Under the pieces are notes generated by a model, which was not told the origin of the DNA, did no database searches, and saw nothing but the letters and a program-made list of their open reading frames with translations. The position numbers were made by a program, and so were the translations under genes. Of a stretch of DNA of 64,000 bases, positions 10,565 to 37,931 are shown piece after piece. How positions within the stretch are numbered: position 1 is the stretch's first letter; each line of letters begins with the position of its first letter. Origin of the DNA: an uncultured Bdellovibrionales bacterium (GTDB lineage: Bacteria; Bdellovibrionota; Bdellovibrionia; Bdellovibrionales; JAMPXM01); assembly GCA_964543475.1 (NCBI GenBank), contig CAZIYJ010000012.1, positions 25,951 through 89,950 on the forward strand. The letters run 5' to 3'.

Positions 10565-11602
10565 ATGTCTGGTCAATGGAGCTCAAGTCCCACAATCAAA
10601 CAATACCTCGAACTTCTTGGTGTGACTGAGACAGCATCAAAAGAGGATCTAAAAAAAGCTTATCATCAACGTGCTTTTCTTTACCACCCTGACCGCAACG
10701 ATGACCCAACTGCGGTTGAACATTTTCAGAAAATCAAAAAGGCATACGAGTTTTTGATTGATCCAGTGCAAGTGGCACTGATTAAACAAAATCATTTAAA
10801 GGAACGTCTCTTTGATAATTGTATCGAAGGAATTCAAATTAGTTTTGGGGCATTTTTTGGTCATCGCGTCTTCGTATCGGGACCAGCTGCCGTGCCAAAG
10901 GAACGGCGACTTGGGAATGACCCCGGTGCCGACTCTCCCACAAGTAGCGAAAGCACGACTGTCTATATTGAAGAAGATAAATCAATCTTGGATAACGCCG
11001 GTTATGACTCAATTGAAGTGGTCTACGCGGGGAAATTCAATTCTGAAGACGAAGAACGCTTGGTTGCCGATGGCAAGGTTACTCGGCATGGGCAACTTCC
11101 TTGGGTAATTTTGAACAATAAAGGAATACTCGACTTTCTTGACGAAAAGTATGAACGATCACTTAGCTGCTACGAAGAGCTGAACGAGCGAATTCCAAAC
11201 AATATTATTTTTCTTTACCGTGAAGCAATTTGCTTAATCATTCTTGCCTTTAAAAACCCAGAGCGAAGCCTCTTCGGACATCGCCCAGCGAAGCGCAATA
11301 TTCAAAAAGCCGTTCAACTGCTAAGGCACTGTATTAAAATTGGCGAGAGCCGTTCTGTGGGAAAGCAGAAATGTTTGGTGATTCGAAAGACTTTAGCCGA
11401 CGTTCTAGAGAAGGTTGGACAAAAGCGAAATTCAAAAAAAATCTGGAAGGAAATTTCAGCGCTTCAGCCAAACTCCGCCGAAGCCCAATTTAAATCTGGC
11501 AACAGTAAGCAGGCACGAGAATTAATTCGCTCAAATAAAAATGCGGAAACCGCGAAAAAGAATTTGAGTCGGTCCCTGCTTTTAAGTCGGGGAAAGTTCT
11601 AG
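10565..11602 (+). CDS. J-domain (DnaJ-like) protein with helical/TPR-like C-terminal region
   Basis: Canonical J domain YLELLGV...KKAYHQRAFLYHPDRN...FQKIKKAYEFL with an intact HPD motif. It starts 9 nt after the Hsp70-like gene. Confidence 0.8.
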   Translation: MSGQWSSSPTIKQYLELLGVTETASKEDLKKAYHQRAFLYHPDRNDDPTAVEHFQKIKKAYEFLIDPVQVALIKQNHLKERLFDNCIEGIQISFGAFFGHRVFVSGPAAVPKERRLGNDPGADSPTSSESTTVYIEEDKSILDNAGYDSIEVVYAGKFNSEDEERLVADGKVTRHGQLPWVILNNKGILDFLDEKYERSLSCYEELNERIPNNIIFLYREAICLIILAFKNPERSLFGHRPAKRNIQKAVQLLRHCIKIGESRSVGKQKCLVIRKTLADVLEKVGQKRNSKKIWKEISALQPNSAEAQFKSGNSKQARELIRSNKNAETAKKNLSRSLLLSRGKF

Positions 11603-11766
11603 TTAACTTGCCAGCAGACCAACGTAAGTCCCGCTTCAGGGGCTAATTCCTTAGAAACTAGTCGGGACAATTGTCGATATTGAAGGCCTCGACTCTGTTA
11701 ATGCCTCTTCACAAAAGAGAAAATTTAGTTTCGCACAAAAGCATAGTGATACAGGAGGTAGTGCTT

Positions 11767-12480
11767 ATGCTTCATACGCTTACGAATGGATTCGTTGCGC
11801 TTGGACTAATGGCTGGGCTCTTGACTGGCTGCGGATCACAAGAAGCATTCAGCTCCGTAAAACCACCCGCTCCTCCTGCTTCTCCAGGCAAATCCGATTT
11901 GCTTTCGCCATCTTTAGATGAGCAGATCCTTTCAAAATATAGCCACTTCGATCCAAAGCGATTGATTAATACTAAATTGCTCAAAGCAGCTACTTTGTAT
12001 TTCCATAAAAACAAGAGTCAGTTTGCAAATCAAAAGGCACTTACGATTATCGATTTCTCGATTCACAGCTCAAAAAAGCGTTTTTATTTGATGAACGTCG
12101 CCACTGGTGAGGTCTGGAACACCTACACTGCCCACGGCGCCGGTTCAGATCCGGGCTCGTTCGATGATAGCTCGGGGTTTGCAGAAGTCTTCAGTAACAC
12201 TCCACAGTCGAATGCGACTTCAATTGGGCCCTACATGACCGACGTCACCTATCAGGGCAAGCACGGCTACTCACTGCGCTTAAAGGGCCTAGCTAGCACG
12301 AACTCTAATGCCTATTCACGAGCGATCGTCATTCATGGTGCAAGTTATGTTTTGGATGAGGCTCGCAAACAAGGCCGCAGCCAAGGCTGCCCAGCGCTTC
12401 CGATGGAGTATCACGAAAAAGTAATTGATCTCATTAAAGGCGGAAGCCTTATCTATGCTGGTGCAAGCGCAAAGCTTTAG
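11767..12480 (+). CDS. L,D-transpeptidase catalytic-domain family lipoprotein (YkuD_2-like), paralog 2
   Basis: AGGAGG lies 8 nt before ATG 11767. Lipobox LLTGC. Shares HFDPKRLINTKLLK, TIIDFS, HGAGSD, GYSLRLKGLASTNSNA, AIVIHGASYV, KQGRSQGCPA and IKGGSLIYAG with paralogs 1 and 3. Confidence 0.75.
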   Translation: MLHTLTNGFVALGLMAGLLTGCGSQEAFSSVKPPAPPASPGKSDLLSPSLDEQILSKYSHFDPKRLINTKLLKAATLYFHKNKSQFANQKALTIIDFSIHSSKKRFYLMNVATGEVWNTYTAHGAGSDPGSFDDSSGFAEVFSNTPQSNATSIGPYMTDVTYQGKHGYSLRLKGLASTNSNAYSRAIVIHGASYVLDEARKQGRSQGCPALPMEYHEKVIDLIKGGSLIYAGASAKL

Positions 12481-27826: not shown

Positions 27827-28831
27827 ATGCTAAAAGACATCGCCCGCAAACTACATGCAGCACGCTCGATCATCCTCACTACTCACCGTCACTGCGATGG
27901 CGATGGCTTGGGCGCACAGATCGCACTCTTTCACGCGCTTAAAAAAGCCGGCAAGAAAGTCCGCGTTCTTAACGTCGACGACACTCCCAAAAAATATTCG
28001 TTCTTAGATACTTCGATCGTTCAAGCTTATGAAGGAGCGCACGACGCAATCACTGATGCCGATCTTGCGATCGTCTTCGATACTAACGATCACCGTTTAC
28101 TCGAGCCTCTTTTTGGCGACTTAAGAAAGCGCGACGTCGAAGTTTTGTTTATCGATCACCATCCGATTTTGAAAAAAGGTCCTGAACCAACAAAAGGTTC
28201 ATGGATTGACGCAAGCGCCGCAAGCACCGGCGAAATGGCGTTTCATTTAGTAAACGAACTCGGAATTAAACTCGACGCAAAGATCGCCCGCGCAATTTAC
28301 ACAGCAATTGTTTTCGATACGCAGCTCTTTAGGTTCGTTCGCAGCTCTCCGCAAACGCATTTGATCACGGCCGAATTGTTAAAGTATGACATTAAGGCTG
28401 AGGAGATACATCGCGGACTTTTCTCGAATTACTCTCCGCAAAAGATGGCCTTGCTTGCTACAGCTTTGAATCAAATCGAATACTTTAGTGACGGCAAGAT
28501 TGCGTTCTTGAAATTGAAGGCCCAGGACTTTAAGAACTTAGGCCTAGAGTCTGATGCCTCGCGCGACCTGATCGATTTTATCATGAACATTGAAACTCTC
28601 GAATGCGCCATCATCTTACGAGAAGATGCTCCAGAAACTTTTAAATTGAGTTTGAGGAGTAAGGGCCGTTTTGAGATCTCGCAAGTTGCCGAACGCTTAG
28701 GCGGCGGTGGCCACCCATTTTCTGCAGGAGCGACTTTGCTAGGACCCTATGATAAGGTCAAAGCAGATGTCTTAAAACTCTTAGAGGAATCGTTGGGTGG
28801 AGCCCGCTCCCCCGGTTATGAGTCAGCCTAA
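27827..28831 (+). CDS. nrnA: DHH/DHHA1 phosphoesterase (NrnA-like oligoribonuclease/pAp phosphatase)
   Basis: Motifs HRHCDGDGLGA, VFDTND, FIDHHP and C-terminal GGGGHPFSAGA. Confidence 0.8.
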   Translation: MLKDIARKLHAARSIILTTHRHCDGDGLGAQIALFHALKKAGKKVRVLNVDDTPKKYSFLDTSIVQAYEGAHDAITDADLAIVFDTNDHRLLEPLFGDLRKRDVEVLFIDHHPILKKGPEPTKGSWIDASAASTGEMAFHLVNELGIKLDAKIARAIYTAIVFDTQLFRFVRSSPQTHLITAELLKYDIKAEEIHRGLFSNYSPQKMALLATALNQIEYFSDGKIAFLKLKAQDFKNLGLESDASRDLIDFIMNIETLECAIILREDAPETFKLSLRSKGRFEISQVAERLGGGGHPFSAGATLLGPYDKVKADVLKLLEESLGGARSPGYESA

Positions 28832-29066
28832 AAACAAAAAAGATATTGTCTGTCTCTGTAACAACGTCGATCGCACGACGATTGAAGATGCTATTCGCAA
28901 CGGCGCAGACACTCTCAACAAAATCTTTGACCGCACAACTGCGGGAGTTGGTCCTTGCGGTGGCTCGTGTCGCCGCAAGCTCGGCCCCATGCTCGATTCT
29001 TATCTAACTTGCGGGGCTTTCCCTGTTCCGCAGCCGAAAAATCAGAACAAGAAAAAGCGCGCCTAA
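28818..29066 (+). CDS. bfd: BFD-like [2Fe-2S]-binding domain protein
   Basis: ATG 28818 overlaps the nrnA 3' end. Contains IVCLCNNV...GVGPCGGSCRRKL, giving two Cys pairs as in bacterioferritin-associated ferredoxin-like domains. Confidence 0.7.
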   Translation: MSQPKNKKDIVCLCNNVDRTTIEDAIRNGADTLNKIFDRTTAGVGPCGGSCRRKLGPMLDSYLTCGAFPVPQPKNQNKKKRA

Positions 29067-29068
29067 GC

Positions 29069-29509
29069 CTAGTCTTCGGTTTCAAAAATTTGGTCTATAC
29101 CAAACTCGTCGCCATAAACCTTTTTAAGCATCACAAGAGTCGCAAGCGTCGGATTCGAATCAACTTCCTCTAATCGTTGATAGCTATAGAGGTTATTGAG
29201 CGACAACTTCTCTTGAATCTGTTTTTGAGTGTAGCCATGCCTGAGTCGTAAATTTCTAATATTCACAGCCAAAGCAACTTTAGGATCGACAGGGATTGCT
29301 ATCACATTAGAAGGCTTTTTCTTAAAATCTTTTGGCGGCGGGAAGATAATCTTCGAGCTCTCGGGCTCCGACAAAAATAGATTCAGAGCTTCCCTCAAAT
29401 TCACTTCAAGCTTCTTTCTCGAGCTCGCCTGGCTAACACAACCCTTGATCTCAATACACTCAGCCCAAAAACCCGAGCCTTCTTTGTGGACTTTGAAGTG
29501 ATATTTCAT
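29069..29509 (-). CDS. hicB: HicB-family antitoxin with C-terminal XRE-type HTH
   Basis: N-terminus MKYHFKVHKEGSGFWAECIEIKGCVSQ (HicB fold). C-terminus NIRNLRLRHGYTQKQIQEKL (HTH). Overlaps hicA by 4 nt. Confidence 0.8.
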   Translation of the reverse strand: MKYHFKVHKEGSGFWAECIEIKGCVSQASSRKKLEVNLREALNLFLSEPESSKIIFPPPKDFKKKPSNVIAIPVDPKVALAVNIRNLRLRHGYTQKQIQEKLSLNNLYSYQRLEEVDSNPTLATLVMLKKVYGDEFGIDQIFETED

Positions 29510-29700
29510 TTCCGCCCCCTCAGTCGCTTAATAAGCTTGTGCTCTAGACCCGCCTTAAGCTCTTTATGCATCGGTATCGTTTCCCTGAGATCGCCTTTGC
29601 CCATGATCACATGCGACCCATTTTGCCTTAAAGCGAGCCAACCATTTTTTTCATAGAGCTTCTTCATTGCTCTCCCACTCATCGGCACTGGCAACTCCAT
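29506..29700 (-). CDS. hicA: HicA-family mRNA interferase toxin
   Basis: About 60 aa. SGRAMKKLYEKNGW...GSHVIM is the YcfA/HicA signature. ATG 29682 is an alternative start. Confidence 0.8.
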   Translation of the reverse strand: MELPVPMSGRAMKKLYEKNGWLALRQNGSHVIMGKGDLRETIPMHKELKAGLEHKLIKRLRGRK

Positions 29701-29835: not shown

Positions 29836-30066
29836 ATGTCCGGGACAGTTAAAGAAATCGTTTGCCTGTGCGAAAACATCGATCGCTCCACTTTCGAAGT
29901 TCCTATTTTTAACGGTGCAGACTCACTCAACAGAATCTTCTATCGCACTACTTTGGCGTCGGGACCGGTGCCGGTCCTTTTCGCCGCAAACAAAAACCAG
30001 GAGGAGTGTTCGAATTGCCTGCGATTTGCAAAAAGTGCCGAAATGGCGTGTACTTCTTTCCGCTAA
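29836..30066 (+). pseudogene. Degenerate second copy of the bfd-like gene (second Cys pair lost)
   Basis: VKEIVCLCENIDRSTFEVPIFNGADSLNRIFYRTTLASGP aligns with KKDIVCLCNNVDRTTIEDAIRNGADTLNKIFDRTTAGVGP of the 28818 gene. By hand, 25 of 40 positions are identical. GPCGGSC is replaced by GPVPVLF, and the tail shows an internal deletion. Confidence 0.55.
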
Positions 30067-30146
30067 ACTAAACAAGCTCTACTTAATTGCACTTGGCGCA
30101 GGCTTGCCGATTGCTCTACACCCCAGTGTTAACAATAGGGGTATTT

Positions 30147-30389
30147 ATGCTTTCTACTAAAACTTTAATCAGCTTAGCCTGTATTCTTTCAAACAAAGGT
30201 GATCTAAACACAAATTCTTTGGAGGCGCAGCTCACAAGCGAAGAGCGCACGAAACTTTCCAAAGTTATCGAGGCAGGCGCGTGTCTACCACCTGATGTAG
30301 ACATACTGATAGAAAAAACAAAAATTCGAATTCAAAGTGGTGAAATAAATAATCCACAAGGATCAACTAATCCGACGAGGGAATGCTGA
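30147..30389 (+). CDS. Small (80 aa) protein with hydrophobic N-terminus and C-terminal Cys; candidate precursor/signal peptide
   Basis: AGGGG lies 5 nt before ATG 30147. The TGA stop at 30387-30389 is 1 nt before the next ATG. Cys at residues 12, 46 and 80, the last residue. No family recognised. Confidence 0.5.
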   Translation: MLSTKTLISLACILSNKGDLNTNSLEAQLTSEERTKLSKVIEAGACLPPDVDILIEKTKIRIQSGEINNPQGSTNPTREC

Positions 30390-30390
30390 A

Positions 30391-31869
30391 ATGAAGTTTG
30401 CGATTGCTGGTATCGTTCTGATTTCAGCAATGTTCTTAATTTTCAACAAAGGAACATCTGCCCAAGTGGAGCAAGCAACTGAGACCTTAAAAGTTAGAAT
30501 CACTGGCACCACGGCCATACCAGACTCTGCGAAGATCGAGTCTGCGGGCGACTGGTATTATGCCGATCATATTTCCAGTGGCTTAGTTGCCTATGAAAAT
30601 GAACAACGCAAATTCGCTCCTCTGTACGCGAGCGATTGGAATGTTTCCGCTGATGGCTCCCATGTTTTCAAACTTCGACCTAATATCAAATTTAGCGATG
30701 GAACTCCAATAACTACGAAGGACATCGCTTGGACAATAAAACGTCTGTTAATTTTAAAAAGCTCGACTCATTTTCCACTTTGGGAATACGTAGTCGGCTG
30801 CGAGAGTCTCAAAACGCTAAATGATGATTGCAGTGGCTTGATCTATTCCAATAGCGAAATTCGTATCAAACTTAAAACAATTAATGATTCATTTTTTCTT
30901 CAGCTAGCTTCACCAGAAACTGCAATATGGTCGGCGGATGATATGGACTCCACGACATGCAAAATTGCTCCAACAAAGTTTTCTGGCCCATACTCAGTAG
31001 CGACCTTAACTTCAGAATCTGCGACATTAGTAAGAAATGAAAACTCGCCGATTTCTCAGAAGTTCAAAAATTCACCTCGATCAATCATATTGAAAGCGAT
31101 ACCATTAAAGGCAATAGATGAATCTCTTGTAGATCGAACTATCGATCTCGCAGTTCGCTCGTACAAACCGTACCAGACAGTCAACTGGGCGAGTCATGGA
31201 CTAAGAGTGCAAAGTACCACGCCCTCTTCGATTATCTACCTACAGGGTACTGGGAATGCCGCTCAGGTTGGACAGGACTTTGTCGAGGCCCTTTGGAGAC
31301 TTAATTCAGATACCGTCATCAGCCCAGCCGAGACATTCTTGCCTTTTTCGAAAACCACTTCAATTTCCAAAGACGAATTTCTTCAGTCGCTTCCACCTTC
31401 GACGTCAAAGACCATAAGATTAATAGGTCCCGAGGGTTTTTTCAGCGATGGCTTGATCGATTTAATCAAATCGGCCGGATTATCTGTTCAAGCTGATCTG
31501 CAGTTCACTTTTGTTCCATCCAAAGAATGGTTCGCAGCTTTCGAAGATCCTAAAACAAAAGAAAAATTTGATTTCATCTTGAGTAGTTACGCAGCCTCTG
31601 AACGTTATCCCGCAGTCCAACTCCGATACATCACTCATCCGTTAGTGAAACCTCCTATCGATCTGAAACTTGCGGAGTCTCCGACGATAACTGCGGATAA
31701 CAGTGAAATTTTAAGGGACTACGAGAAATGGCTGCTTCGTAGCCAAGTTGCAATCCCTCTTTTTTTTAATGTTACGCAGTTCATCTTTAGAGAATCGCTG
31801 GATCTGGGCAACCAATCGCTTACCGATGCAGAAATAGAGCTTTGGCGAATACAGGAAAGTTCTCGATGA
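30391..31869 (+). CDS. Periplasmic solute-binding protein, family 5 (peptide/nickel type), orphan
   Basis: Signal peptide ending TSAQ. SBP_bac_5-like N-lobe: WNVSADGSHVFKLRPNIKFSDGTPITTKDIAWTIKRLL. No permease or ATPase genes adjacent. Confidence 0.7.
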   Translation: MKFAIAGIVLISAMFLIFNKGTSAQVEQATETLKVRITGTTAIPDSAKIESAGDWYYADHISSGLVAYENEQRKFAPLYASDWNVSADGSHVFKLRPNIKFSDGTPITTKDIAWTIKRLLILKSSTHFPLWEYVVGCESLKTLNDDCSGLIYSNSEIRIKLKTINDSFFLQLASPETAIWSADDMDSTTCKIAPTKFSGPYSVATLTSESATLVRNENSPISQKFKNSPRSIILKAIPLKAIDESLVDRTIDLAVRSYKPYQTVNWASHGLRVQSTTPSSIIYLQGTGNAAQVGQDFVEALWRLNSDTVISPAETFLPFSKTTSISKDEFLQSLPPSTSKTIRLIGPEGFFSDGLIDLIKSAGLSVQADLQFTFVPSKEWFAAFEDPKTKEKFDFILSSYAASERYPAVQLRYITHPLVKPPIDLKLAESPTITADNSEILRDYEKWLLRSQVAIPLFFNVTQFIFRESLDLGNQSLTDAEIELWRIQESSR

Positions 31870-32792
31870 ACGAGGCAATAGATTTTAGAACCACACAAGA
31901 CTGTCTCGTAGCAGATTTTCTTCGACTACAATTACCGCTCGCTGAATCTCAACTTCAGATTGGAACACTTTCCTATTCACTCTTTTCTACAGAAGGAATT
32001 GGTGGCCCTGCCCACGGTCGAGATCCTTTACGAAAATTAGCCCTAATTAAGTGCATTGCAGAACATTTTGAGCGGCAAGCAATGCAAGAGTACTTTTCCA
32101 AGTGTTTCCAAACTCCTAATACCTTTCGCAACAGCAATGGATGGGCTGCGCATTTCGACTTGGCTGCGGCGATGGCTGCGAGCAGAAATGAATTACTGGA
32201 ACGACATCTTTTGCTTAAATCCTTTTTAAAATTTGGATGGGATGGCTTTTGTCTCAAGCACAGTTTTTCAATCGACGGACTCGAAATAAAACTTCTCACC
32301 TCAAGATTTGTCACTGAATCACGCATAAGCGGGATTGCTATTACTAAAGGACAGTCGCAAAACGGTGTTTCCTTTGGTTATTGCAACGGCGAAAAAGGCC
32401 GACTCGGAAGTCTCGAATTTTGGAAGCCAGCAATTTTTGAATCTATCGATAAACTTTTTGTTCTTGGTAACAATCGAATGCAAGTTGCCGAGAATGCTTC
32501 GTGGATTGAAAAAGGCATTCAACACTATTTAACCGAGCCGCTTTCAGTTTGCTTAAGCGACAACAGCTCGATATTGACTCCTGAACTGAATTACTGCACT
32601 GAAGTTTTCAACCTAAAATCCCGCCTGAACTTAAAAAGTCAATTTTGGGCAGCCCGAACTACTGCGAACAACGCAGTCCCATTGTTCGATACTGGGTGCT
32701 TGTCATCCGACGGCATTAGCTTTGTTAAGAGCGCCCTTGAAAACAATGGTATCGACGCCTACCACCTTCCCCAAAGACATCCAATCTTATGA
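31866..32792 (+). CDS. Short YcaO-like family protein (tentative)
   Basis: ATGA start/stop overlap with the SBP gene. ALIKCIAEHFER aligns with the YcaO A-x2-S-A-x2-E-x2-E-R motif. SNGWAAH...SRNELLERH aligns with the second G-x-A-x-G/H...E-x2-E-R motif. The C-terminus is ...LPQRHPIL. Confidence 0.5.
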   Translation: MNEAIDFRTTQDCLVADFLRLQLPLAESQLQIGTLSYSLFSTEGIGGPAHGRDPLRKLALIKCIAEHFERQAMQEYFSKCFQTPNTFRNSNGWAAHFDLAAAMAASRNELLERHLLLKSFLKFGWDGFCLKHSFSIDGLEIKLLTSRFVTESRISGIAITKGQSQNGVSFGYCNGEKGRLGSLEFWKPAIFESIDKLFVLGNNRMQVAENASWIEKGIQHYLTEPLSVCLSDNSSILTPELNYCTEVFNLKSRLNLKSQFWAARTTANNAVPLFDTGCLSSDGISFVKSALENNGIDAYHLPQRHPIL

Positions 32793-34099
32793 TAAGCCAA
32801 AGGTTTAAAGTATTTCTTTGTGCGATTTTTTTGGCAATCGCATTTACTTGGTCAAGTCGATTGATCCAAGAGTCTTCTCGAGCGAAATTTACTTCGATCA
32901 TGTGTGAATCCGTTGCAAATTACCTAGAAACTGGAAGCTTAAGGCCGGCCTACGAAGTCATGAGCTTCAGCACTTCGCGCATGTATCCGGGCAGTTGCGT
33001 AACGATTGCAGATCAAGGTCGCAAGTTCTCCCCTGCATGTATCGATACGGTTAAAAGTTATGAGACTCATAGCTGCTTGGTAGCTGGTAACAAAGGGGTC
33101 AGAGCAGAAGCTCACTATCCCATTTCACGGTTTTTCAGCATGAACTTCATTCTTATAGCAGCGACTATTTTCTCAATATCGCTCATGCTGATGACTGCTT
33201 TATCAAAATTCGCTGCGGCCATCCGCAAAGAAATGGATCAATCGGTTGCTAGGCTTTTCGAGAATCAAACACAGCCAGCAAGCTTAAGTGATCGGATATT
33301 AAGAACAGTGGGCGCATCGAATAAAATTCAAGCAAATACACAAAACTTAGAGCGGTCGATCTCGGCCTTCAAACTCAAACTGAAGCGAGAAGCTGAGCTT
33401 CGCGCCATTCAGGATGAAATTAGCGAGCGAAATAATAATTATATTTCGAAGGCAGTTCAAATTCGTCATGATATGGCTGCACCAATTGGAGCTCTTATTT
33501 CATTGAAGCCAAAATTACAAACCGACTTTGCGGCAACCCAGATGATGAATGAATCTATTCGCAGGTTAAAACTGATGATGGACGATCTCTCAACAGTGAC
33601 CCGTGAGACATTTTTTCTTCGTCCTGAATTAATTCAAGCTGTTGTCGACGAAGTGGTCTCGCATTTGTCTCCTCAGATAGATAGCAGCCGGACTAAAATT
33701 ATTGTCCAATCGCAGAGGCACGACATCATTGCTGCAATCGATGCCGAGAAAATGAAACGTCTGCTGACGAACCTAATCATCAACGCAATAGAGGCGTCAG
33801 CAAAAGTAATAATCATTAAAGTAGATTCAAAATCTGATCTAGTTCAGATCGACTTGATCGATAATGGAACAGGAGTTCCCGCAGAAATAAGACACGCTCT
33901 CTTTAAAAAAGGTTCCAGTTACGGAAAGCCTGCTGGAAATGGGCTAGGTCTATACTATGCGAAGGAGACATTGCGAGCGTGGCACGGTGACGTCGAGATA
34001 GAACACTTAACAGTTGGAACGAAGCTTCGAATTCGATTGCCGACTCTGTCGCTCGACCCTGAATTCAGTCAGTCCGCGGACCACTCATATCAACTTTAA
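32789..34099 (+). CDS. Sensor histidine kinase (two TM helices, Cys-rich periplasmic domain), orphan
   Basis: ATGA overlap with the upstream gene. H-box IRHDMAAPIGAL, N-box LTNLIINAIEAS, G1 DNGTGVP, G2 GNGLGLYYAKE. Four Cys lie between the two TM helices. No response regulator adjacent. Confidence 0.85.
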   Translation: MISQRFKVFLCAIFLAIAFTWSSRLIQESSRAKFTSIMCESVANYLETGSLRPAYEVMSFSTSRMYPGSCVTIADQGRKFSPACIDTVKSYETHSCLVAGNKGVRAEAHYPISRFFSMNFILIAATIFSISLMLMTALSKFAAAIRKEMDQSVARLFENQTQPASLSDRILRTVGASNKIQANTQNLERSISAFKLKLKREAELRAIQDEISERNNNYISKAVQIRHDMAAPIGALISLKPKLQTDFAATQMMNESIRRLKLMMDDLSTVTRETFFLRPELIQAVVDEVVSHLSPQIDSSRTKIIVQSQRHDIIAAIDAEKMKRLLTNLIINAIEASAKVIIIKVDSKSDLVQIDLIDNGTGVPAEIRHALFKKGSSYGKPAGNGLGLYYAKETLRAWHGDVEIEHLTVGTKLRIRLPTLSLDPEFSQSADHSYQL

Positions 34100-34807
34100 A
34101 AGATACTCTCTAGTAACCTGTTCGAGCCCAAGATATAGGGCATCTGCAATTAAAGCATGGCCGATTGAGACTTCGGCGATGATTGGGATTTCTTTTACTA
34201 AGTGATTCAGGTTTTTTAAACTGAGGTCGTGGCCGGCGTTGATTTCGAGGCCGAGAGCGTGCGCGCGATAGGCGGTATCTTTGTACTCAGCGGTCACTTT
34301 GGATTGCAAAGGAGTTCCGAAGGCGTCAGCGTAGTCTTCGGTGTAGAGTTCGATGCGGTCGCAGCCGAGTTTTACAAGAGTAGCAAAGTCAGCGTCAGAG
34401 GTTCCGGGATCTACGAAGACTGATGATCGCACTCCCCACTTCTTTAACGACGCTAAAACTCCAGCTAGTTGTTTTTCGTTTGCAGAAATATTCCAACCTG
34501 CGTTGCTTGTGATTGCTTCAGGGGGATCAGGCACTAACGTGCACTGAGCAGGTCGAACTTCGTCGATCATCTTCATGAAATCATCTGAAGGATAACCTTC
34601 AACGTTTAACTCAACTGAAATTGCTTTTTTGAGTGCGTAGACATCTGTTTTGCGGATGTGTCGCTCGTCGGGCCGCGGATGAACGGTAATTCCATGCGCG
34701 CCAAACTTTATTAGATCAAGACTCACCTGCAAAACATCGGGATTGTTTTTGCCGCGAGAGTTCCGAAGTGTTGCAACCTTGTTTACATTAACGCTGAGTT
34801 TGGTCAT
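34085..34807 (-). CDS. pdxJ: Pyridoxine 5'-phosphate synthase
   Basis: LSVNVNKVATLRNSRG, GITVHPRPDERHI and EVSIGHALI are diagnostic PdxJ motifs. 240 aa. Confidence 0.95.
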   Translation of the reverse strand: MTKLSVNVNKVATLRNSRGKNNPDVLQVSLDLIKFGAHGITVHPRPDERHIRKTDVYALKKAISVELNVEGYPSDDFMKMIDEVRPAQCTLVPDPPEAITSNAGWNISANEKQLAGVLASLKKWGVRSSVFVDPGTSDADFATLVKLGCDRIELYTEDYADAFGTPLQSKVTAEYKDTAYRAHALGLEINAGHDLSLKNLNHLVKEIPIIAEVSIGHALIADALYLGLEQVTREYLLKLI

Positions 34808-35023
34808 TGTGAGCCCCGACTGTTGGTTGAATAGCTATGCCTTTGTCGGTGAAAGATTGCAATGCCGACGCTGATCTGACTTTTGAATTTATAGGATTTT
34901 AGTCGAGTTTCTTGCCATTAGAGAGCGAGTTTACAGTCTAGTTTTGTGCTTTACGGCAAACCTTTGCGCTCTAGTTATGCAGTTTTCCAAGGGATTTTCC
35001 GATTTTAAAGTGTGGAGGACTCT

Positions 35024-36454
35024 ATGAGCAACTTAGCTAAAACACAACAGGATGAAATCCTGGTACCGCAAATGCCAAAACTGATTGTAGTTCGACAAGA
35101 TCGAGTCACTGTTGACGATCTTCAGACTATCATCCGAACTAAAGATGGTGATTTCAACGTCATCGACTTCAGCCCGTTCGGCTTAGCTGTGTTTACGAAA
35201 GAAGATTTGACCGATAAATCTTATATCGCGTCTTTTGTGGTGCAGAATGTTGAGATCGAACAAATTGAAATCAAAAAAGTTCGCTCAGAAAAATATTTCC
35301 ACAACGAGCACGACGGCTACAAAACTGCTTTTGCAATTACCGGCAATCCAATTTCGATGGAGCGAGCGGTAGCAGTCCGAAAAACAACTGAAGTTCTTTC
35401 TGAACACTTAGCTCAGGTTTCCGCTCCACAAGTCCCTGACGCTTTTAAACTTGTTTCTTATGAAATCACAAACTGGTTAGCGAAGTTACAATCTCTTGTA
35501 AATTCACTTGAGAAATCTTCGTTCGAGCATTCGCGAACGTATCTCGAACCATATGAAGCAGTTGTCACTGAAATGGTGGCTCATTACATCGAGAGCAACA
35601 TCTATCCACTCTATTCAAAAATCCAACACATTGTTGAGGGGCTCGACTCTCAAACTGTAAAAAGCTCGTTCGTTTTCTTTAGAGAACAAGTTGGGCCATA
35701 TCTTTACCAATCAGCATATGCAAACCGCGCATACACTAAACCACGCGGATATGCAGGCGACTTTGAGATGATGAAGAGCGTCTATAATAACGAACAGCGC
35801 GGCCAGAGTCTATTCGGTCGCTGCGTTGAACGTTATTTCGTAAATGTTCCAGAGTCTCAAGCGGTCCGCAATAGAGGCAGATACTTACAAGGCAAGATCA
35901 TCAACTTTATTCAAAGCAACCCGGGTCGCCCTCATCGCTTTTTGTCACTCGCCTGCGGCCCAGCAATGGAAATTCAATACTTGATACAAGAAAATCCCGA
36001 GCTTCTTACTGAAGATGTTGAGATCTATTTCGTAGATCAGGACACCGAGGCTTTGAAAGAATGTCAAAAACGCATTGAGCTACTCGGACGACAATTTAAA
36101 GTAAAAGCTAAGTTCAGATTTCACAATTGGGCAGTAAAGAACATAATCGAAAATGGTCTACAAGTCCCTGAACTCAGCATGATCTATACAGCAGGCCTGT
36201 TTGACTACTTATCCGATGCTGTAGCGTCTTACGCAGCTCAACGATTATTTACGAATGTACTTCCAGGTGGAGAGCTTATCATTGGCAACTTCGATATTTC
36301 GGCTCCGAATCGCTTTGGAATGTCACTCGTAACCGATTGGCACTTAATTTACCGCACGCCGAGAGATCTAGAACGTTTATTTGGGAAACTCGGCAATTTC
36401 ACAGTAGAAAAAGAAAGTCTCGGCATCAACTTATTTGCGTCACTGAAGAAGTAG
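35024..36454 (+). CDS. PilZ-like N-terminal domain fused to a class I SAM-dependent methyltransferase
   Basis: GGAGGA lies 4 nt before ATG 35024. The N-terminus carries RQDR...VIDFSPFGLAV, a DxSxxG PilZ-like element. The C-terminus carries FLSLACGPAMEI (motif I), YFVDQD and IYTAGLFDYLSD. Confidence 0.55.
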   Translation: MSNLAKTQQDEILVPQMPKLIVVRQDRVTVDDLQTIIRTKDGDFNVIDFSPFGLAVFTKEDLTDKSYIASFVVQNVEIEQIEIKKVRSEKYFHNEHDGYKTAFAITGNPISMERAVAVRKTTEVLSEHLAQVSAPQVPDAFKLVSYEITNWLAKLQSLVNSLEKSSFEHSRTYLEPYEAVVTEMVAHYIESNIYPLYSKIQHIVEGLDSQTVKSSFVFFREQVGPYLYQSAYANRAYTKPRGYAGDFEMMKSVYNNEQRGQSLFGRCVERYFVNVPESQAVRNRGRYLQGKIINFIQSNPGRPHRFLSLACGPAMEIQYLIQENPELLTEDVEIYFVDQDTEALKECQKRIELLGRQFKVKAKFRFHNWAVKNIIENGLQVPELSMIYTAGLFDYLSDAVASYAAQRLFTNVLPGGELIIGNFDISAPNRFGMSLVTDWHLIYRTPRDLERLFGKLGNFTVEKESLGINLFASLKK

Positions 36455-36470
36455 GATACTTAACAAGATT

Positions 36471-37931
36471 ATGATTCCCAAAAAGCTACTCGACAATCAA
36501 GTCGAAGAAACTTTGCTAAAGGAAACGCGCGAAACATTCGCGACTGGTTTCCTATTCGCACCGTTTCTGTATCTTGGCTTTTGGGCAGTAGATTGCTTCT
36601 ATGCTCCCGATCAAATGTGGAAGTTCCTTGGGCTTCGAGTTACACACGGTCTCTTTGTTGCAGGATTGTATTTCTACTTCAAACAGCCGAGATCACTGCG
36701 ACAATATCAAATAGCGGGAGCTAGCTGGGCCGCAATCGCGAGTAACTTGATTACTATCATGATACTTATGACTTCAGGCCCTGCCTCAATTTATTATGCC
36801 GGCCTAAATCTAGTTGCTCTACTAGCGATCTTCTTCATACCGTATAGACCTAAAGTTCAATGGTTTGCCCTTGCCACAATCTTTATCCCTTACTTAATTG
36901 GATGCGGCCTTCAAGTTACTAGAGACAATTTTACTACCTACGTAGCCAACTCCGCATTTGTATTCGGGACCGTATTAATTGGGGTCGTCATCAAGAAAGT
37001 TCAATTCCGCACTCGAATTAAAGAAGTAGAGGCGCAGCTTGCCCTTGCAAGCGAAGTTGCAGATCGCGAAGAGGTTATTCAAGTAAAGACCACGGAAAAT
37101 GTAAAGCTCTCGAGACTTAGCAACCAATTTAGCCCACAGGTTGTAGAAGCAATTCGCACTGGCGCTCTTGAGCTTTCAGTAAGCGCAAAGAGAAGTTTAA
37201 TATCGACTATTTTTATCGACATCGTAAATTCGACTGAGCGAGTTGTCCGAGTCGACAATGCAAAAGTAAACAAAGTAATTGGAATGTTTTTAGAAGATAC
37301 GGCTCGTATTCTCCTTAAGTACGATATCACTATCGACAAATTCTTAGGCGATGGAATTCTAGCTTTTGCCAACGATCCCGTGCGCCACTCCGATTTCGTT
37401 GAGCGAACAGTTCGAGCTGCAATGGAAATTCGGGAACGGATAAGTAGCCGGCAAGAAGAATATGAAAATCTTTGGATGAACAAGTTAGAAATTCGCATTG
37501 GGATTGCTCATGGTTACGCAAATGTGGGCTTCTACGGAAACGAAAAGCTTTACAAATGCTATACAGCCATCGGACCAGTAGTGAATTTGGCTTGTCGTCT
37601 GTCGGCGGCTGCTGATCCTAATGAAATCCTGATTACTCACGACGTGTTCGAAAATATGCCTACTTCGCAGTTTGTGACAGCATCAAAAGGTAAACTGACC
37701 CTCAAGGGGTTCGAGCAGGATTTGATCAAATGCTATTCGATTGATGGTTACGCCGGAAATAATAAGGCAGTCGACAAGTTTGAAGACGACTTGGAGTGTT
37801 CGAATTGCCATCAAGGTATCTTCTATCTGGCTTCGAACGACAAAGGCCAGTTTGTATTTAAATGCCGGCATTGCGGCTTTGTTCAAGAGCAAGAAGAAGC
37901 CTCAGCTTCCCTTATAAAGCGCGCAAGCTAA
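36471..37931 (+). CDS. Membrane-bound class III adenylate/guanylate cyclase with C-terminal zinc ribbon
   Basis: About 6 N-terminal TM helices. Cyclase core: TIFIDIVNSTE, KFLGDGILAF, IRIGIAHGYANVGFYG, YTAIGPVVNLACRL. The tail is CSNCHQG...CRHCG. Confidence 0.85.
   Translation: MIPKKLLDNQVEETLLKETRETFATGFLFAPFLYLGFWAVDCFYAPDQMWKFLGLRVTHGLFVAGLYFYFKQPRSLRQYQIAGASWAAIASNLITIMILMTSGPASIYYAGLNLVALLAIFFIPYRPKVQWFALATIFIPYLIGCGLQVTRDNFTTYVANSAFVFGTVLIGVVIKKVQFRTRIKEVEAQLALASEVADREEVIQVKTTENVKLSRLSNQFSPQVVEAIRTGALELSVSAKRSLISTIFIDIVNSTERVVRVDNAKVNKVIGMFLEDTARILLKYDITIDKFLGDGILAFANDPVRHSDFVERTVRAAMEIRERISSRQEEYENLWMNKLEIRIGIAHGYANVGFYGNEKLYKCYTAIGPVVNLACRLSAAADPNEILITHDVFENMPTSQFVTASKGKLTLKGFEQDLIKCYSIDGYAGNNKAVDKFEDDLECSNCHQGIFYLASNDKGQFVFKCRHCGFVQEQEEASASLIKRAS

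Follow-up and report, generated by a model that had tools for sequence, protein, structure and literature searches.

We analysed a 64,000-nucleotide stretch of DNA from an uncultured Bdellovibrionales bacterium (contig CAZIYJ010000012.1; hereafter the window) that carries, at positions 30147-34099, a cassette of four genes on the same (+) strand, packed end to end. The first is a small open reading frame (ORF) of 80 amino acids (aa) (30147-30389; ATG at 30147, TGA at 30387-30389) whose product ends in ...NPTREC; the second encodes a 492-aa solute-binding protein (SBP; 30391-31869, ATG at 30391), the third a 308-aa YcaO-like protein (31866-32792), and the fourth a 436-aa histidine kinase (HK; 32789-34099). 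A single base separates the stop codon of the small ORF from the ATG of the SBP gene, and ATGA start/stop overlaps join the SBP gene to the 308-aa gene (31866-31869) and the latter to the HK gene (32789-32792). This packing, with its coordinates, one-nucleotide gap, and two overlaps, had been described exactly in a first reading of the DNA made from the letters alone (the original prediction). The HK stop codon (34099) in turn overlaps the 3′ end of the convergent pdxJ gene. Shine-Dalgarno-like sequences precede the first three genes of the cassette but not the kinase gene, which therefore probably depends on its ATGA overlap.

The usual partners of an SBP or a sensor kinase were also said to be lacking, and searches of the whole window with hidden Markov models (HMMs) and tblastn agreed. 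The models for a receiver domain, a sigma54 activator, a second HK, and a second SBP matched nothing else in the 64 kb, the ABC ATPase signature occurred in no ORF of the window, and the response regulator (RR), sigma-like, and VirB4 proteins of related loci had no tblastn match in it.

To place the cassette among its relatives, about 28 non-redundant loci (numbered with the prefix L below) were gathered by exact-protein look-ups and one metagenome scan, and were annotated with HMMs built from the module proteins. About 27 further independent loci, from metagenomes or metagenome-assembled genomes (MAGs), contain the gene set, the named relatives being Bdellovibrionaceae or Bdellovibrionales MAGs. 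A scan of GTDB representative genomes returned one locus, in a Bdellovibrionaceae MAG, and tblastn against the PLSDB plasmids gave no match. Of the 26 loci with enough flanking sequence, 25 had an SBP_bac_5 gene next to the short YcaO gene and 25 had an adjacent HK gene, the SBP gene directly upstream and the kinase gene directly downstream except in L013; the quartet proposed for the window is a neighbourhood shared with other genomes. The single exception to the linkage was L031, which has a truncated YcaO-like ORF. This 259-aa ORF (1122-1901), with no SBP or kinase match in about 1.1 kb on each side, may be a decayed copy.

The linkage is kept at about 20% identity, in L012, L013, L015, and L035. 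In L015 and L035, where the YcaO protein is about 25% identical to that of the window, the order is a 65-aa ORF, SBP, YcaO, and a hybrid kinase; L012 keeps the set with a YcaO about 19% identical to the window's; and L013 has the order YcaO, a 106-aa ORF, SBP, kinase, and regulator. Across the loci, the pairwise identities of the SBP, YcaO, and HK rise and fall together, which indicates that the genes were inherited as a unit. The arrangement is far beyond chance, and this synteny is the strongest evidence for the module. PADLOC gave no match and PHROGs nothing informative. The literature searched, in which most subscription journals were not covered, contained no description of the combination, which the original prediction had not recognised either, and within that same coverage it reported no YcaO flanked by an SBP and an HK. 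The module is real and conserved, and apparently undescribed.

The assignment of the 308-aa protein as YcaO-like was upheld by its predicted fold and by a deep sequence profile, and fell short of the Pfam cut-off. Against Pfam, the window protein matched YcaO (PF02624) with an E value of 0.026 and 14.3 bits, below the 25.7-bit cut-off, over residues 87-118 (32 residues). The same family ranked first in Pfam for all eight of eight close homologues (best E value, 2.4e-6), and several distant members of the short YcaO family carry a precomputed PF02624 match. An AlphaFold2 model of the window protein (pLDDT 78.7, pTM 0.78) was compared with the PDB by Foldseek, as the original prediction had proposed, and ranks 1 to 21 were all YcaOs (6cib/6ci7, 4q84-86, 4v1t-v, and 7u58). 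The best of these was the Methanopyrus kandleri thioamidation YcaO (6cib; E value, 6.8e-7; TMq, 0.53); others were Escherichia coli YcaO, LynD, and MusD. By sequence, the PDB YcaOs were reached only with a profile of 91 sequences, which matched MJ1094 (9.1e-7), McbD (4.6e-5), and the M. kandleri YcaO (9.2e-5); searches of the PDB sequences with the single sequence and with an 8-sequence profile found no YcaO.

An exhaustive profile search of 1.84 billion representative sequences yielded 213 clusters, 132 of them at E values below 1e-10, and the full-length members are mostly 300 to 375 aa long, shorter entries appearing to be fragments. A deep-profile search of a word-indexed database returned 16 proteins and no more. 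NCBIfam has no model for either the small protein or the YcaO-like protein, and Pfam likewise has none of its own for the short YcaO. Judged by profiles and the predicted fold, the 308-aa protein is a member of a distinct subfamily of short stand-alone YcaOs, divergent and minimal.

YcaO enzymes use ATP to activate peptide backbone amides, giving azoline, thioamide, or amidine products, and prior structural work has shown that their ExxER helices hold Mg2+ and ATP; the assignment of the ExxER motifs to ATP/Mg2+ binding reportedly goes back to Dunbar et al. in 2014. Both motifs are invariant among the 91 aligned members. The first, E66-H-F-E69-R70 (32061-32075), aligns to the ...mEAiER segment of MJ1094 and the M. 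kandleri YcaO, and the second, E109-L-L-E112-R113 (32190-32204), together with the preceding S90-N-G-W-A94 (SNGxA), aligns to the tNGlAsG...lEiiERD segment of the solved YcaOs. Invariant in this alignment are E66, E69, R70, G92, E109, E112, and R113, and near-invariant are G51, N91, A94, G167, G171, E192, and P306; the ATP/Mg2+ motifs align residue for residue with MJ1094, the M. kandleri YcaO, and McbD, and the third conserved Glu is E192. The protein ends in ...P-Q-R-H-P-I-L-COOH (32774-32789), and a tail of the form P-x-x-H-P-[IV]-[LI] closes most of the 118 full-length members listed; in a 29-sequence alignment, P306 is invariant and P302 near-invariant. This conserved, Pro-containing family C-terminus, ...P-E-R-H-P-[IV]-[LI]-COOH, resembles but is not PxPxP. 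From its fold and its ExxER and SNGxA motifs, the enzyme appears to be competent for catalysis. An N-terminal hydrophobic segment or export signal is lacking, and the protein is predicted to be cytoplasmic.

The small ORF is a conserved gene, and its 80-aa product is a candidate precursor. A profile from five syntenic copies gathered a family of 46 clusters, with a conservation pattern that divides the protein into a leader (residues 1-58; mean top-residue frequency, 0.66), a linker (59-74; 0.30), and a tail (75-80; 0.60). A11, C12, C46, and P48 are invariant, and P76 and C80 near-invariant. The AlphaFold2 model has helices at residues 4-15, 23-27, 31-43, and 51-63 and a disordered tail, so that a helical N-terminal domain is followed by a variable linker and a conserved C-terminal motif. 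The structure prediction proposed for this product thus gave a model and no structural match, Foldseek returning nothing below E = 3. Identification as a PqqD-like RiPP recognition element (RRE; RiPP, ribosomally synthesised and post-translationally modified peptide) was rejected, as the model is all-helical.

The tail motif P76-T-R-E-C80 (30372-30386) is the proposed modification site, where the Thr after Pro and/or the terminal Cys could be heterocyclised; YcaO cyclodehydratases form azolines from Thr, Ser, and Cys. Among 55 small proteins, comprising the family and its distant counterparts, 51 have P-[T/S/C] within the last 14 residues (PT in 29, PS in 18, and PC in 4), and 50 have a Cys there. 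Most relatives end in ...CF, while the window copy ends at the Cys itself. The layout is that of a RiPP precursor: a small ORF beside a modifying enzyme, a conserved leader, and a separate core with modifiable residues. A YcaO fold, synteny elsewhere, and a conserved small ORF, the features on which the original prediction depended, were all found, and none of the outcomes that it had named as refuting it was seen.

Small ORFs of distant loci, which are homologues or analogues of the window protein, carry canonical Sec signal peptides (e.g., MESKTATKLIGLAFFLAVPTAALA|QSP...) and have tails that resemble the window tail (...SQPSGVCA and ...GNPTCWKKE). Their signal peptides would bring these proteins to the compartment that holds the SBP and the sensor domain of the HK. 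A lipoprotein or Sec reading was not adopted for the window protein, since Cys12 lies too near the N-terminus, an AxA-type site is lacking, and many members have no basic n-region. However, the N-terminus of the window clade, TLVGLACLIANKG (30147-30200), which is highly conserved, is similar to the h-region (KLIGLAFFLAVP...) of the signal peptides that the small proteins of L015 (6317-6514) and L035 (2865-3056) carry. It may be an export signal that has been shortened, or it may act as a recognition helix.

The two remaining families named in the original prediction were confirmed by Pfam. The SBP matched SBP_bac_5 (PF00496) with an E value of 7.5e-19 and 68.5 bits (cut-off, 32.4), and the HK matched HATPase_c at 1.4e-15. 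The SBP has a hydrophobic N-terminal segment, suited to export or anchoring, and is predicted to be exported. It is the most conserved protein of the module, with 50-56% identity between the window and its relatives and 50-62% within the core clade. Its nearest solved relatives, AapF, MppA, and DppE, all weak matches, bind peptide or nickel, and its best NCBIfam match, also weak, is NikA-like. The lack of a transporter partner, noted at the outset for the window, extended to the relatives: no annotated related locus contains an ABC permease or ATPase gene, and the window has no ABC ATPase. Local uptake is therefore an unlikely function of the SBP, and a cognate transporter may be encoded elsewhere.

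Apart from its sensor domain, which is novel, the kinase is of the ordinary HisKA/HATPase_c type. HisKA itself was called in one relative only (28 bits); in the alignment with relatives, H227 of the IRHDxxxP H-box is invariant and the N and G boxes are conserved. Hydrophobic segments at residues 1-19 and 112-130 indicate two transmembrane (TM) segments, so that the product of 32789-34099 reads as TM1, a periplasmic domain, TM2, a linker, the H-box with H227, and HATPase_c. The periplasmic sensor domain (32870-33133) has no Pfam match. Its four Cys (C39, C70, C84, and C96), which the original prediction had pointed out, are invariant across six aligned kinases that are overall only 26-30% identical, as are L46, G49, R52, D75, G77, R78, and P82. 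The core-clade kinases are longer (546-577 aa), and their extra C-terminal residues, about 125 in number, match a REC profile (hhalign probability, 89%; E value, 2.2e-6), although Pfam does not call this receiver-like domain. The window HK lacks it.

A gene for a sigma54-dependent (NtrC-type) RR lies in the operon in 16 related loci, usually immediately upstream of the small ORF. The description of the kinase as an orphan is right for the window copy and a few others and wrong for most relatives, which have the adjacent sigma54 RR; these 16 loci contradict the notion of a kinase that is intrinsically without a regulator. Elements of the form GG-N10-GC that end in TTGCT occur near the first module gene of several loci: in L002, L007, and L010 they lie about 50 nt upstream of it, L009 has one 114 nt upstream, and the one in L001 sits where the RR is annotated to start. 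In the window, a weak sigma54-type -24/-12-like element, AGGCTTGCCGATTGCT, lies at 30100-30115 (+), 47 nt upstream of the small ORF. Equal or better sites occur about once per 2.7 kb, so this site alone is not significant, and as a promoter it is suggestive only. A further sigma54-like site, TGGCACAATAAATGCT, and a good one, follows the kinase gene of L001 at 10953, ahead of the next gene.

The module is typically carried by mobile elements. In at least eight loci, TrbC/VirB4-type genes of a type IV secretion system (T4SS) and a gene for a sigma70 region-4 protein come after the module (in L012, before it and divergent), and resolvase, resistance genes, or integrases are often near these T4SS-linked modules. 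The protein conserved between the module and the TrbC/VirB4 genes is about 260 aa long and has two sigma70 region-4-like domains, weakly resembling those of the extracytoplasmic function (ECF) type (L001, 12162-12953; L002, 11669-12457; L009, 10799-11578; and equivalents). It may be a transfer-gene activator under the sigma54 regulator. Other neighbourhoods differ. Genes for nSTAND3-like and TIR-domain proteins, of a kind typical of defence islands, follow the distant modules of L013 (6595-9671) and L038 (5857-6705), so the cassette is not restricted to conjugative elements, and the modules of L015 and L028 sit by unrelated genes. In L012, genes for a GNAT acetyltransferase and an Rce1-like CPBP intramembrane protease come directly after the kinase gene (10657-11979); CPBP proteases occur in some YcaO clusters for thiazole/oxazole-modified microcins (TOMMs), as SagE, and this one could be the leader or tail protease of that subfamily. 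Given such varied neighbours, the module looks like a portable signalling unit that is coupled to conjugation often, not always.

The window cassette sits between housekeeping genes, with a DHH-family phosphoesterase gene, bfd, and pdxJ as its neighbours, and both the RR gene and the transfer genes are absent. Its GC content (43-44%) equals that of the flanks, and a recent horizontal acquisition is unsupported. The window HK is 25-30% and the YcaO 31-37% identical to their core-clade counterparts, more diverged than the core members are from one another, while the window SBP is no farther from the core members than these are from each other. The trimmed cassette is present and identical in several samples; in one, L039, a second strain and the only close relative available, there is 1 nt of difference. 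RR-less modules also occur in L015, L027, and L035, and a REC-less one in L013. Because all ORFs, overlaps, and invariant residues are intact and such RR-less and REC-less versions exist elsewhere, the window copy is probably a chromosomal, trimmed, intact variant that works via an unlinked regulator rather than a relic.

The surroundings of this copy show signs of rearrangement. A degenerate second copy of bfd ([2Fe-2S] BFD-like), with its Cys ligands lost, lies just upstream of the cassette at 29836-30066 (compare 28797-29066 and 29069-29700); the two copies have 74% mean column identity, gaps included, in a two-sequence alignment, with recognisable similarity over about 150 nt. Between them, on the minus strand, is a hicB/hicA toxin-antitoxin pair, and the bfd duplicate and hicAB together look like the scar of an old insertion or duplication. 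On the other side, L039 (4472-9179) and the window differ at 1 of about 4,400 nt in the cassette and upstream region and at 8 of 723 nt in pdxJ (34085-34807), more toward its 5′ end, and the homology stops abruptly at 34807. Beyond pdxJ, the window has a 480-aa ORF without a Pfam match on record (35012-36454) and a MASE8/guanylate-cyclase protein (36471-37931), whereas L039 carries PEMT and FeeM-like genes, among others. An island that varies between strains begins next to pdxJ.

Taken together, we tentatively read the cassette as a self-contained module for making and sensing a modified peptide, with a YcaO-modified peptide, an SBP co-receptor, an HK, and a sigma54 output, and we put the probability of this whole reading somewhat below an even chance. 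The analysis establishes which genes are present, how they are conserved, the fold and active-site motifs of the YcaO, and the compartments predicted for the products; that the YcaO acts on the small protein, that the product is exported and then bound, and that transcription responds, we infer from linkage, compartments, and sequence patterns. The YcaO would recognise the helical leader domain of the small protein, in the manner of a structured leader domain (NHLP) that is recognised by a YcaO via protein-protein contacts (PMC12455567). With ATP, it would activate a backbone amide of the tail, most likely forming an azoline at the Thr, Ser, or Cys after Pro and/or at the C-terminal Cys. The modified peptide would then reach the periplasm or the medium, for which the distant subfamilies have a Sec signal peptide. 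There, the transporter-less SBP would bind it and dock on the 4-Cys periplasmic domain of the kinase, which would signal to the sigma54 activator, in core-clade relatives via the receiver-like domain. The activator would finally switch on the operon and neighbouring genes, such as those for conjugation. A narrower and distinctly less probable version is that the short YcaO, by putting an azoline or some other amide-derived modification on the tail, makes a RiPP-type autoinducer of diderms, read by an OppA-like SBP on a 4-Cys kinase, with the five-gene form gating the sigma54-dependent expression of conjugative transfer genes.

Several observations weigh against a make-and-sense module. On the side of the enzyme, no annotated locus has an E1-like/Ocin-ThiF protein (C protein/RRE), an FMN dehydrogenase, or TfuA, although a short YcaO may carry out TfuA-independent thioamidation, and the C-terminus of the short YcaOs is not the canonical PxPxP that has been linked to azoline-forming YcaOs (PMC12338566). 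On the side of the substrate, the tail holds two or three heterocyclisable residues at most, unlike typical azol(in)e RiPPs, and the tail Cys is absent in L030, L035, P0023, P0042, and P0052. The small proteins of the window clade have a short uncharged hydrophobic N-terminus without a canonical signal-peptidase site, which offers no evident route of export, and no leader protease or exporter is conserved in the module, L012 alone having an Rce1-like CPBP protease. Tail type and SBP show no visible co-variation; L021, which shares the window-like PTREC followed by Phe (PTRECF), has an SBP no closer to the window SBP than other SBPs are. The missing regulator and receiver-like domain of the window copy, and the divergence of its HK and YcaO, count on the same side.

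Some of these points would fit a sensor of exogenous ligands, which we regard as unlikely. The SBP and HK would detect external oligopeptides, from a neighbour or prey, or a metal or metallophore, and the small protein and YcaO would form a cytoplasmic branch; in one variant, the YcaO-modified small protein would modulate the kinase or regulator from inside and not be a signal. Such a division of labour would suit a module without an exporter or protease, a window-clade small protein without a convincing signal peptide, an SBP that is the most conserved protein while the peptide linker is hypervariable, and nearest SBP relatives that bind peptides or nickel, and the E. coli YcaO and the archaeal McrA-modifying YcaO do act on cellular proteins, not on secreted peptides (PMC5589413). 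However, the canonical Sec signal peptides on the distant small proteins point to a periplasmic or extracellular role, and the strict four-gene linkage, kept despite the shuffling in L013, is simplest if all four proteins act on one molecule. The YcaO product could instead be mainly a bioactive RiPP, antimicrobial or metal-binding, with the SBP and HK serving autoinduction, immunity, or the sensing of re-capture, a reading we hold to be more doubtful again. Precedents are the autoregulation of nisin through NisRK and the family-5 SBP MbnE, which binds methanobactin. The conserved C12, C46, and C80 with a thiazoline- or oxazoline-capable tail could chelate metals, the weak best NCBIfam match of the SBP is NikA-like, and most of the YcaO products described are antibiotics or toxins (PMC4603692). 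Yet immunity, exporter, TonB receptor, and uptake genes are not conserved, the modifiable residues number one to three only, and the frequent position at the head of a conjugation operon, with a sigma54 activator, suggests that regulation is primary.

A different kind of explanation, which we consider improbable, concerns the window copy by itself: it could be what remains, without function, of the regulatory operon of a mobile element, stranded between bfd and pdxJ once the RR, the receiver domain, and the transfer genes had been lost. The missing RR and receiver-like domain, a small protein without the usual terminal Phe, an HK and YcaO more diverged from the core clade than its members are mutually, and the nearby scars of rearrangement (the bfd pseudocopy and the hicAB insertion) are all consistent with decay. 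Against it stand four ORFs that are intact despite deep divergence from every relative, with all invariant catalytic and structural residues and the overlapping start/stop junctions kept; the GC content equal to the flanks, which speaks against a recent arrival; the RR-less (L015, L027, and L035) and REC-less (L013) versions elsewhere; and the identity of the cassette in several samples. We give least weight, finally, to the idea that the small protein is a partner or scaffold of the YcaO and that the enzyme modifies another protein, e.g., the SBP before export, or the kinase; this we think very unlikely. Its 58 N-terminal residues are well conserved and predicted to fold, and stand-alone YcaOs are established to need a partner often (E1-like/Ocin-ThiF or TfuA), of which none is present. 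But the model is all-helical, not PqqD-like, and without a structural match, a tail that is conserved, disordered, and bears P-[T/S/C] is what a substrate typically has, and the signal peptides in distant homologues are unfit for a cytoplasmic scaffold.

Under the make-and-sense reading, the module combines known kinds of system, RiPP biosynthesis being joined to two-component peptide sensing. Its enzyme shares the fold and the ExxER and SNGxA motifs with the solved YcaOs, namely the azoline-forming cyclodehydratases McbD, LynD/TruD, and BalhD and the thioamide-forming MJ1094 and M. kandleri YcaO, at only about 10-12% identity. It stands alone without an E1-like partner, as the bottromycin YcaOs do (PMC4603692). 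E. coli YcaO (586 aa) and LynD (775 aa) are far longer than the short YcaOs of 300-375 aa. In methanobactin operons there is likewise a RiPP precursor with a modified Cys and a family-5 SBP (MbnA, and MbnE, which binds the mature product), but these have the MbnBC modifiers, a TonB receptor, an exporter, and copper uptake, and neither an HK nor a sigma54 regulator.

As circuits, ComQXPA of Bacillus and Agr of Staphylococcus likewise have a precursor, a modifying enzyme, a membrane HK, and an RR (here, in relatives) in one operon, and the sigma54-like promoter upstream of the module hints indirectly at autoinduction. The modifier is a prenyltransferase (ComQ) or the AgrB peptidase in those systems and a YcaO here; the module adds a periplasmic SBP, a diderm host, and a sigma54/NtrC-type regulator, and there is no sequence relationship. 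A binding protein gene beside a sensor kinase gene, without transporter genes, is known from LuxP/LuxQ, TorT/TorS, and ChvE/VirA, the last with T4SS control as a further likeness. LuxP, TorT, and ChvE have a sugar-binding-type fold, whereas the module SBP is of family 5 (peptide/nickel/opine type), the periplasmic domain of its HK is a small 4-Cys domain, and the contact between the two is proposed. Conjugation under peptide control occurs in Enterococcus pCF10 (PrgZ/cCF10), ICEBs1 (RapI-PhrI), and pLS20 (Rap-Phr), and the module likewise heads conjugation genes in many relatives; PrgZ is, moreover, also an OppA-like family-5 SBP, and it captures a peptide pheromone of a mobile element. In those systems, however, the peptide, which is not YcaO-modified, is imported via Opp to a cytoplasmic receptor, whereas the module has a membrane kinase and no permease, and the window copy is without conjugation genes.

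The known roles of YcaOs are the making of antibiotic or toxin RiPPs and a few protein modifications. Peptide autoinducers are textbook in Gram-positives and rare in diderms. About 130 clusters (at 50% identity) of YcaO wired to an SBP, a kinase, and a sigma54 regulator, and not to genes for immunity or export, would, if the reading is true, point to a signalling function of backbone-modified peptides. As a family, the short YcaOs would also show how small a functional YcaO domain can be, as judged from their sequences and the modelled fold. The module is compact and portable, with four or five genes and a clear predicted substrate tail, which makes the hypothesis directly testable, and if working it may serve as an orthogonal signalling part. 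A modified-peptide circuit on conjugative elements would, if true, bear on how mobile elements decide when to transfer. It would also give such elements a quorum or mating signal of a new class, and YcaO enzymes a biological role that is new.

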